Assembly (NCBI GenBank): GCA_039195685.1
Contig: JBCCVH010000001.1
Span: 1-31,880 of the forward strand
Direction of reading: 5' to 3'
Length of the DNA: 31,880 bases
Origin: Bacteroidota bacterium
GTDB taxonomy: Bacteria; Bacteroidota; Bacteroidia; Cytophagales; Amoebophilaceae
This document shows positions 28,287-31,196 of the stretch, piece by piece; positions within the stretch are counted from its first letter, which is position 1, and each line of letters starts with the position of its first letter. The notes below the pieces were generated by a model, which was given only the letters and a program-made list of their open reading frames with translations, was not told where the DNA came from and made no database searches. The position numbers and the translations under genes are program-made.

Positions 28287-31196
28287 AAGGAAGTATTTGG
28301 GAAATTAGTATTGCTTGGCTGTGCCATTACTGACTATACACCTGCAACCTATCAAGGTCATCGTCTATAACCTCCCTTAAAAGAAACCTCATCTTGAAGC
28401 GAGTTTCGTACTTATATGCTTTCAGTACTTATCTCTAATAAACGTAGCTACTCAGCGATGCAATTGGCATCACAACTGATACACTAGCGGTTTACCCAAC
28501 CTGGTCCTTGCGTACTAAGGTCAGCCCTTCTCAAGTTTCTAGCGCCCACAACAGATAGAGACCAAACTGTCTTACGACGTTCTGAACCCAGCTCGCGTGC
28601 CACTTTAATGGGCGAACAGCCCAACCCTTGGGACCTTCTTCAGCCCCAGGATGTGACGAGCCGACATCGAGGTGCCAAACCTCCCCGTCGATATGAGCTC
28701 TTGGGGGAGATAAGCCTGTTATCCCCGGCGTAACTTTTATCCTTTGAGCGATGGCCCTTCCATGCGGAACCACCGGATCACTATATCCATCTTTCGATTC
28801 TGCTCGACTTGTAGGTCTCACAGTCAAGCACCCTTATGCTATTGCACTCTACATACGATTACCGACCGTACTGAGGGTACCTTTGAAAGCCTCCGTTACT
28901 TTTTAGGAGGCGACCGCCCCAGTCAAACTACCCACCACACACTGTTCCCGCATTGCGGGTTAGATATCCAATAAATAAAGGGTGGTATTTCAAGGACGAC
29001 TCCACAATGCCTAGCGGCACTGCTTCAAAGTCTCCCACCTATCCTACACATTATTTACTAAATACCAATGTGAAGCTATAGTAAAGCTGCACGGGGTCTT
29101 TTCGTCCCGTTGCGGGAAAGCGGCATCTTCACCGCTACTACAATTTCACCGAGCTCGTGGCTGAGACAGCGCCCAAGTCGTTACACCATTCGATCAGGTC
29201 GGAACTTACCCGACAAAGAATCTTGCTACCTTAGGACCGTCAGAGTTACGGCCGCCGTTTACTGGGGCTTCAATTCAAAGCTTTGTCTTGCGACTAACCT
29301 CTCCTTTTAACCTTCCAGCACTGGGCAGGTGTCAGGCCTTATACGTTATCTTTCGATTTTGCAAAGCCATGTGTTTTTGTTAAACAGTCGCTTGGGCCTT
29401 TTCACTGCGACCTTCCTACCACCCGAAAGTGATAGGCGAGGCACCCTTTCTCCCGAAGTTACAGGGCTATTTTGCCTAGTTCCTTGGCCACGATTCACTC
29501 GTCCACCTTAGGATTCTCTCCTCAACTACCTGTGTCGGTTTGCGGTACGGATAACTTATTATTACAACGATTAGAGGCTTTTCTTGAAAGCTAGATTAGG
29601 GTCATTATCTACGCTCCCGAAGGATTGTAGTACTATCACTTTCGACAACCTTAAGGGATTTGCCTCTTAAGGCTATATCTACGAGCTTCAACCTTGTATT
29701 CCATCACAAGGCAGACCTTTCACTTCTTTGTCCCCTCTTCTCTATAATAAGCTAGTATCGGAATATTGACCGATTTTCCATCGCCTTGGCCTTTAGGCTA
29801 CGGCTTAGGACCCGACTAACCCACGGATGACTAGCATGGCCGTGGAAACCTTAGTTTTTCGGTGTAGTGGTTTTTCATCACTATTATCGTTACTCATGCC
29901 TACATTTTCTTTTCTAATCAATCCATCAGGCGTTACCACCCAACTTCAATTCGATTAGAATGCACTCCTACCCCTGACTACTTGCGTAGCCAAGCCATCG
30001 CTTCGGTAATAGACTTAATGCCCGTTTATTATCGGCGCTCGATTGCTTTGACCAGTGAGCTGTTACGCACTCTTTAAATGATGGCTGCTTCCAAGCCGAC
30101 ATCCTGGCTGTCTAAGCAATTGAACTTCCTTAGTTCAACTTAGTCTATATTTAGGGACCTTAGCGGATGGTCTGGGTTTTTTCCCTCTTGGACTAGGACC
30201 TTAGCACCCTAGTCCTCACTCCTAACAAACAACTAATAGCATTCGGAGTTCGTCTGGATGTGGTAGGATTTGACTCCCCCACTATCTGATCGGTAGCTCT
30301 ACCTCTATTAGTCTATACGTTAAGGCTGCTCCTAAAAGCATTTCGGAGTGTACGAGCTATCTCTTAGTACGATTGGCTTTTTACCCCTACCCACAGCTCA
30401 TCCAAATCATTTTCAACTGATACTGGTTCGGTCCTTCACTTTGTCTTACCAAAGTTTCAACCTGGCCATGGGTAGATCACTAAGTTTCGCGTCTAGCTCC
30501 TCTGACTAAAGCGCCCTGTTAAGACTCGCTTTCGCTACGGCTTCTCCTTTCAAAAAGATTAACCTTGCCAGAAAAGACTAACTCGTAGGCTCATTATGCA
30601 AAAGGCACGCCGTCACCTCTTACGAGGCTCCGACCGCTTGTAGGCGCACGGTTTCAGGTCTATTTCACTCCCTTATTCAGGGTTCTTTTCACCTTTCCCT
30701 CACGGTACTCGTCCACTATCGGTCTCTCAGTAGTATTTAGCCTTACCAGATGGTGCTGGCAGATTCAGTCAATATTTCTCCAGTATCGACCTACTCAGGA
30801 TACTCACCATAAAAATGACATTACCTCTACAGGGCTTTCACCCTCTATGGCTTACCTTTCCAGGTAATTCGAGTTTTATCACTTTTATTTATGCAAGTCC
30901 TACAACCCCAAACTTGCCAAAACAAGTTTGGTTTGGGCTTTTTCGTGTTCGCTCGCCACTACTTACGAAATCACTGATTTGTTTTCTCTTCCTCCAGTTA
31001 CTTAGATGTTTCAGTTCACTGGGTTTGCTTCTCTACTAAGTAGAGATACTTTAGGTTTACTAAAGTGGGTTGCCCCATTCGGACATCTGCGGATTAATTT
31101 GTGTTAACCAATCCCCGCAGCTTATCGCAGCTTGCCACGTCCTTCATCGCCTCTGAGAGCCAAGGCATTCTCCATGCGCCCTTAATTTACTTCCTT
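28287..31196 (-). rRNA. rrl: 23S rRNA (~2910 nt)
   Basis: Terminal helix AAGGAAGUA/UACUUCCUU; GAUGAAGGACGUG near the 5' end, PTC and A-/P-loop sequences present; no intervening sequence noticed. Confidence 0.99.

Follow-up and report, generated by a model that had tools for sequence, protein, structure and literature searches.

The joining loop between helices 69 and 71 (H69 and H71) of bacterial 23S rRNA is conserved nearly as strongly as the peptidyl-transferase loop (PMC6321417), and laboratory mutants that are lethal or sick have usually been the only means of studying its nucleotides. In what follows we describe a natural form of this region in the 23S rRNA gene carried by a stretch of 31,880 nucleotides (contig JBCCVH010000001.1 of assembly GCA_039195685.1, positions 1 to 31,880; hereafter the window). 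The source organism is an endosymbiont, a genome-reduced member of the Amoebophilaceae (Cytophagales, Bacteroidota). Its H69-H71 region differs from the canonical bacterial one (E. coli 1906-1970; Rfam model RF02541) by seven substitutions within 51 nt, all at highly conserved positions of the Rfam consensus. Familiar as the molecule is, this natural variant of it is new and, for ribosome specialists, moderately to clearly surprising.

Two of the positions in question lie in the H69 loop. A1916 sits in the stack formed by nucleotides 1915-1918, and RluD depends on it: with A1916U no pseudouridine is formed, and with A1916G there is less of it at 1917 (PMC3973299). Among the E. coli H69 mutants of Liiv et al. 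(2005), A1918G, which matches the allele described here, had no growth, polysome or poly(U) phenotype. Their allele at 1916 was A1916G, which led to 50S heterogeneity, poor 70S formation and ribosomes inactive in vitro (PMC1190176), whereas the source genus has C1916, natural and fixed.

The remaining positions belong to the junction of helices 70 and 71. The pair G1935-C1962 closes this junction (PMC7049716), and the Rfam model pairs these two nucleotides as well. An A-minor contact links A1966 to the G2592:C2601 pair of helix 93 (H93) (PMC6321417), and in an RF2-bound state a Hoogsteen pair between C1965 and A2602 is possible (PMC6742477). The methyltransferases that produce m5U1939 contact A1937 and C1941/C1942 (PMC6235398). 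The sequence UUCCU at 1939-1943 is conserved and needed for subunit association and for interaction with tRNA and the ribosome recycling factor (RRF); it is also the cleavage site of MazF-mt6/mt3, and VapC toxins cleave the sarcin-ricin loop (SRL) (PMC5408214).

The variant H69-H71 region

The sequence-only reading of the window had listed seven differences from E. coli, and direct reading of 29186-29253 finds all of them on the minus strand (table 1). The alignment of this region with the covariance model RF02541 is ungapped, and each of the seven stands opposite an upper-case consensus letter. For 1935, 1937, 1942, 1965 and 1966 the numbering is borne out by an alignment with E. coli K-12 rrlH; for 1916 and 1918 it is obtained through the same ungapped offset against the H69 of rrlH. 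The length of the region and its secondary-structure elements equal those of the canonical form, with which it has in common the H69 stem, the 7-nt loop, the C1925-G1929 mini-hairpin and the H71 hairpin. The observation that the flanking stems are untouched was therefore accurate, both the H69 stem and the H71 hairpin being canonical.

In the H69 loop, C1916 and G1918 stand where the canonical sequence UAACUAUAA (1911-1919) has A1916 and A1918. The other nucleotides of the loop, A1912, A1913, C1914, U1915, U1917 and A1919, are those of canonical H69, and they include the three that are most damaging when mutated in E. coli, A1912, U1917 and A1919 (PMC1190176).

In the H70/H71 junction, A1935 faces C1962, and cmscan flags the pair as non-standard. 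In diverse other lineages G1935 has a C or U opposite it, at 1962 or 1963 (as G-C or G.U), so that A1935 could pair with U1963 by a slip of one nucleotide; the sequences suggest such a slipped pair as a possibility. UUCCU has become UUCUU. As the receptor pair G2592:C2601 is unchanged here, the A-minor contact of A1966 with H93 would either be lost or be taken over by the new A1965. The sequence-only reading had interpreted the whole set as remodelling of the subunit interface. This description suits H69, but not the H70 positions, which face inward (A1966-H93, C1965-A2602 and G1935-C1962). Folding of the isolated 1929-1973 fragment, consensus against variant and in all 32 allele combinations, was discarded as a guide to the junction, since even the consensus gave non-native pairs.

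Table 1. Features of the window and positions of the substitutions (E. coli numbering)
Feature	Window position	Strand	Location or remark
A1916C	29243	minus	H69 loop
A1918G	29241	minus	H69 loop
G1935A	29224	minus	H70/H71 junction
A1937G	29222	minus	H70/H71 junction
C1942U	29217	minus	H70/H71 junction
C1965A	29194	minus	H70/H71 junction
A1966U	29193	minus	H70/H71 junction
Helix 69 (1906-1924)	29235..29253	minus	stem canonical; loop with C1916 and G1918
H70/H71 junction loop, 5' strand (1935-1944)	29215..29224	minus	A1935, G1937, U1942
Helix 71 hairpin (1945-1961, bridge B3)	29198..29214	minus	unchanged
A1965/U1966 in place of C/A	29193..29194	minus	A-minor adenine at 1966 removed
Longest difference-free 23S stretch between the two genus species	29172..29283	minus	script count 113 nt; spans H69-H71
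23S rRNA gene, complete	28285..31196	minus	Rfam RF02541, 2713.9 bits (cut-off 50); model 1-2925, full-length match
5S rRNA	28131-28243		Rfam; adjoins 23S
RNase P RNA	23147-23536		Rfam scan of the window
Sarcin-ricin loop (2660-2661)	28509-28510	minus	reads AGUACGCAAGGACC
Second small cluster (780-793)	30369-30382

The source assembly (G000) is a metagenome-assembled genome (MAG) of 618,657 bp in 99 contigs, 87% complete; a second species of the same genus (G001) is represented by a genome of 92% completeness. Genomes of Amoebophilaceae measure 0.7-2.7 Mb, against mostly 3-7 Mb across the order Cytophagales, which the sequence-only reading had rightly named. A match search of the whole source genome gave one 23S copy. 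The 23S gene of the window is a functional gene and not a decaying copy: it is single, has the 5S gene adjacent and is conserved between species. The 16S and 23S genes are unlinked within Amoebophilaceae. In the source genome the 16S gene lies on a separate contig (C11), and the 684 nt upstream of the 23S gene contain no tRNA; G001 (contigs C9, C3 and C14) has two 16S copies on contigs other than the 218-kb contig carrying its 23S gene, and in another family genome, G020, about 94 kb separate the two genes on one contig (G020:C1).

Distribution of the alleles

G001 is identical to the window over the entire H69-H71 core, the seven alleles included. When 241 million metagenome contigs were scanned for the 3' motif with A1965/U1966, a single match was obtained, a contig of 1,055 nt (L147). 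It has the full set of seven alleles but is not identical to the window in the rest of its sequence. In a 23S tree built with H69-H71 masked, the source genome groups with L147 (support 100/99) and both with G001 (95/92), the next relatives being G003 and G009 (100/100). The alleles are real and heritable, fixed in three independent assemblies of one clade across about 10% rRNA divergence.

The segment was recovered from 28 of 48 Amoebophilaceae genomes, whose genera are designated here by g-numbers. The canonical loop (A1916, A1918) occurs within the family in g3 and g9 only, and A1916 is combined with G1918 in g6, g18, g13, g15 and g4. The loop with both C1916 and G1918 is confined to the source genus, as are the five changes of the H70 junction, at which the other members of the family are canonical. 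The claim that the seven changes form one set has therefore to be narrowed: the five junction changes and C1916 are specific to the genus, but G1918 is widespread in the family.

The same family, on the same G1918 background, provides a second independent replacement of A1916. All 15 species of g16 with the segment have the loop AACCUUGAC (U1915C, A1916U, A1918G; e.g. G023:C1:799918-799981). Thus g16 combines U1915C with A1916U and a canonical H70/H71 junction, whereas the source genus has A1916C, keeps U1915 and has a changed junction. In g16 the m3-pseudouridine site at 1915 is gone and the RluD-like gene is kept.

Outside the family, eight order relatives are canonical. A sample of 401 Bacteroidota genomes gave matches in 180, with 94 further matches outside the listed set; among the matches listed (about 150 copies from the 179 genomes other than the source) all are canonical at all seven positions. 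The allele set is thus atypical of both Cytophagales and Bacteroidota.

The H69 loop alone is less exclusive. The exact loop with C1916 and G1918 was found in 98 stretches from a collection of 185,579 species, and its carriers include Phycisphaerae, Dojkabacteria/Saccharibacteria/Parcubacteria, Calescibacteria, Dependentiae and some Alphaproteobacteria. The C1916/G1918 loop is thus a rare but recurrent and viable bacterial state. Although their H69 loop is identical to that of the source genus, the 80 of the 98 stretches that were read lack, G001 aside, A1935, G1937, U1942, A1965 and U1966. Their H70 varies in other ways, for example by A1938G with C1962G/U1963C in Phycisphaerae or A1936U/U1940C in the candidate phyla radiation (CPR). 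As far as these scans reach, the H70 allele set is unique to the source clade.

G1918 had also been described as the archaeal/eukaryotic state, which is correct. H69 of archaea and eukaryotes retains A1916, and apart from G1918 the region of the source genus is neither archaeal- nor eukaryote-like.

Clustering, later freeze and partner genes

In 14 order relatives 1,147 columns are invariant, and at these the two genus species have 11 changes in common, five of which fall within 32 nt (scan statistic, approximate p = 1.1e-4). The analysis was repeated with the full 3' end added and E. coli as an extra row. It gave 17 private changes of the genus at columns invariant in all others, which is an ordinary total, since other lineages have 2-31 and one fast lineage 92. 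Inside 1906-1970, however, the genus has five of its 17 private changes, against four of 247 in 12 other lineages (Fisher p = 6.5e-5), and the fast lineage with 92 private changes (G018) has there only a compensated stem pair, 1909/1921. It is the location of the genus changes, not their rate, that is unusual, and the suggestion that they are clustered rather than scattered noise is borne out by both tests.

The two species share only 89.8% identity in 23S and likewise 89.8% in 16S, but the longest stretch of 23S without a difference between them spans H69-H71 (table 1): the flanking differences are at positions 1913 and 2026 of their own 23S, with zero between. The chance of an identical run of 113 nt at the mean divergence is 0.898^113 = 5e-6. 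It follows from this freeze that selection holds the derived state as stringently as the canonical one, and that the region is not in ongoing decay.

Several other conserved centres changed on the same stem. In both species the SRL has turned from GAGA to GCAA (A2660C, G2661A), whereas 13 of 13 order relatives have GAGA; the GNRA form is preserved, but A2660, the adenine targeted by ricin, and G2661, the guanine targeted by sarcin, are gone. C2072G (29087) and G2437U (28733) convert a conserved C-G pair of helix 74 (H74) into G.U, again on the genus stem, and this pair adjoins C2073:G2436, the receptor of the A2598 A-minor contact. In the second small cluster (table 1), 784 and 792 have changed together, to A/G in the source genome and U/U in G001, and may be a non-canonical pair that covaries; 780 and 793 have changed in the source genome only. 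That the H74, 784/792 and SRL changes lie on the same stem points to a lineage-wide episode in which several conserved centres underwent changes that were paired or compensated. Within this episode H69-H71 is the densest hot spot; with the SRL and the H74 pair altered in the same lineage, it is not an isolated redesign of the interface.

The partners of the region named by the sequence-only reading were inspected in turn. For 16S helix 44 (h44), no partner change was seen: the contact nucleotides 1406-1410 and 1492-1495 are canonical in the source genome. A matching change in h44 or helix 45 (h45) was rejected as well, as the G1405A/C1496U pair of G001 and G023 is absent from the source genome, and the change of the h45 closing pair occurs in the source genome only. 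The 16S genes have some features of their own. The source 16S (L162, G000:C11:9701-11224) has C1400U, common to G001 and G003, its h45 loop-closing pair has changed from C-G to U-A, and its 3' end reads CCUCUUUU. In G001 and G023 the change G1405A/C1496U is a compensated one.

RRF is present and carries no genus-specific signal. Its co-evolution with H69-H71 was rejected, as no conserved residue is changed identically in the source genus alone. RRF is divergent across the whole subclade of g1, g3, g9 and g11 (L169 = G000:C37:2533-3009 in the source genome), scoring 119-142 bits against 173-228 elsewhere, with the conserved G30, R109 and E120 replaced and a deletion of 2-3 residues near 145. 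For the release factors prfA/B, the 87%-complete source genome has one PCRF gene (G000:C72:1734-2315, RF1-like score class), G001 has two, and four relatives have two PCRF-domain release factors. Loss of RF2 or a changed code was rejected on account of the two genes in G001 and of TGA, which ends 60 of 392 long open reading frames (ORFs) of the source genome; the genetic code is probably standard and RF2 merely unassembled.

Among the modification enzymes, rluD has a candidate in a 356-aa protein of the RluA subfamily, for which the best equivalog is RluD at 220.7 bits, below the cut-off of 351 bits. The RluD target uridines U1911, U1915 and U1917 are retained, and a putative RluD-like synthase is retained in the genus. 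RlmH was not found in any of the 24 family genomes searched. Its loss explains nothing about H69, since 12 of 16 free-living order relatives lack it as well and have canonical H69. RlmI was not found in any of five family genomes tested, those with the canonical sequence included.

As to rlmD, a PF05958 match was found in neither the source genome nor G001 (87% and 92% complete), whereas 14 of 16 order relatives and 11 of 24 family members have an RlmD-type gene. The genus therefore lacks, as far as found, both sides of the RlmD/RlmCD substrate relation, the enzyme gene and the canonical contact nucleotides, which are now G1937 and U1942. However, the gene is also missing from g16, g13, g9 and g18, all with canonical H70, and its loss was rejected as a sufficient cause of the H70 change; it may be permissive at most.

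What could have produced the variant

The explanation that we regard as probable is that damaging substitutions were fixed by drift, were then compensated locally and finally came again under purifying selection, with no new function involved. Six of the alleles, all but G1918, arose on the genus stem or just before it. Weak selection in small, bottlenecked symbiont populations could allow a damaging substitution, or two, to become fixed in an RNA motif that is tightly packed. A candidate for such a hit is C1965A/A1966U, which would remove the A-minor contact of A1966 to H93, and another is G1935A, by which G1935-C1962 would become an A.C mismatch or a slipped A1935-U1963 pair. Neighbouring substitutions would then have repaired the motif, which would have settled at a different local optimum where purifying selection is strong once more. 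The changes in H69 would continue a family-wide loosening of the loop, in which G1918 is widespread and another genus has arrived at C1915/U1916. Loss of the RlmD-type m5U1939 methyltransferase may have permitted A1937G and C1942U, at nucleotides contacted by the enzyme, without being sufficient. The resulting ribosome is expected to be functional, though the 3' half of its H69 loop would stack differently and its H70 junction would be packed anew. Compensation is visible elsewhere on the stem: the C2072G/G2437U pair is kept, 784 and 792 changed jointly, and the SRL is still a GNRA loop.

Four points weigh against drift followed by compensation. The scans yielded no intermediate sequence, and the order and mutual dependence of the changes have to be supplied by reasoning. 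The columns counted as invariant are unequally constrained, which makes the permutation p-values approximate. With the receptor G2592:C2601 unchanged, the replacement of the A1966 contact is unexplained. Finally, drift and compensation alone leave unexplained the joint change at three sites that known ribosome-inactivating enzymes also attack (UUCCU and A2660/G2661 of the SRL).

A rival account is adaptive. On the one hand, the recognition elements of a toxin or drug that targets rRNA and is met inside the host could have been removed by selection: the MazF-mt6/mt3 site UUCCU (PMC5408214) is now UUCUU, the SRL, a target of ricin, sarcin and VapC, is now GCAA in both species, and both changes were fixed on one stem branch and conserved since. 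On the other hand, one substitution suffices against recognition of UUCCU, which leaves four H70 and two H69 changes unexplained; no toxin acting at 1916/1918 or 1965/1966 is known; and neither MazF/PemK nor PIN-domain genes were found in either genome of the genus. The last result is also the ground on which self-immunity to toxins of its own was rejected, as PemK/MazF and PIN genes were not found in G000 or G001. Escape of this kind is unlikely. The bolder version, a ribosome rebuilt simultaneously at three functional sites of universal conservation (the H69 tip, the H70/H71 junction and the SRL) under selection by toxins of the host or of co-residents, and thus naturally toxin-proof, is quite unlikely.

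It is improbable that constraint was simply relaxed, i.e. that the readers of these nucleotides (RlmD, RlmI, RlmH and possibly others) were lost and the sequence decayed neutrally. RlmD-, RlmI- and RlmH-type genes were indeed not found in the genus, and A1937 and C1942 are methyltransferase contacts (PMC6235398). Decay, however, is at odds with a region that forms the longest invariant block between species 10% diverged. Moreover, the same absences do not disturb the canonical sequence elsewhere, as seen for RlmH in 12 of 16 free-living order relatives with canonical H69, for RlmD in the canonical H70 of g16, g13, g9 and g18, and for RlmI in all five family genomes tested, canonical ones among them.

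Recombination or gene conversion could also have brought in a patch of some foreign or paralogous 23S gene, several changes entering in a single event. This would account for the confinement of the changes to 51 nt, and the G001 bin does hold a second, very divergent rRNA set. No donor is known, however: the 3' motif occurs once in the 241 million metagenome contigs and there in the same clade, the H70 alleles are found in G001 only among the 80 of 98 same-loop stretches that were read, H70 is canonical in the divergent copies of the G001 and G013 bins, which are of organelle-like or alphaproteobacterial type, and the source genome has a single 23S gene. Such an event is very improbable. That the alleles are an artefact, a pseudogene or an ordinary taxon signature (an assembly error, an rRNA copy in decay or alleles that Cytophagales typically have) is hardly credible, for although the source is a fragmented MAG (99 contigs, 87% complete) and G1918 by itself is a family trait, three independent assemblies concur, the 23S gene is full-length, high-scoring, single-copy and adjoined by 5S, and relatives in order and phylum are canonical.

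Whatever its origin, the variant is a viable, long-lived combination supplied by nature: the junction pair is A.C or slipped, the B2a loop has C1916, and both UUCCU and the A-minor contact of A1966 are missing. The allele set shows which combinations are tolerated and offers a concrete test of epistasis in rRNA, the alleles being introduced singly or together. With the altered SRL in the same gene, the source genus is a good candidate for work on ribosome structure. The variant is relevant, too, to the question of how much the translational core of genome-reduced symbionts can change while helices and proteins are kept.

Two sequences that combine C1916/G1918 with canonical H70 were considered as intermediates and rejected. 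One, a 23S fragment from the bin of the Amoebophilaceae MAG G013 (L027, G013:C101), clusters with an alphaproteobacterium. An unrelated 'Bacteroidota' MAG has an identical contig (L079), and the fragment is likely a mis-binned co-resident or organelle sequence. The other (L047, G001:C15) is organelle-like, on a branch of 4.7 changes per site. Together with L164 it forms the very divergent rRNA set of the G001 bin, on a contig of 36.6 kb that probably derives from an organelle or another organism; its 16S-like match extends over 2,397 nt at 545 bits, and its 23S-like H69 has the C1916 and G1918 loop with a swapped 1910-1920 pair. In the 23S of another family genome, G012 (L023/L028/L046; G012:C1:942135-943141), the conserved linker within H69-H71 is interrupted near 1931-1935 by about 700 nt, which may be an intron or intervening sequence.

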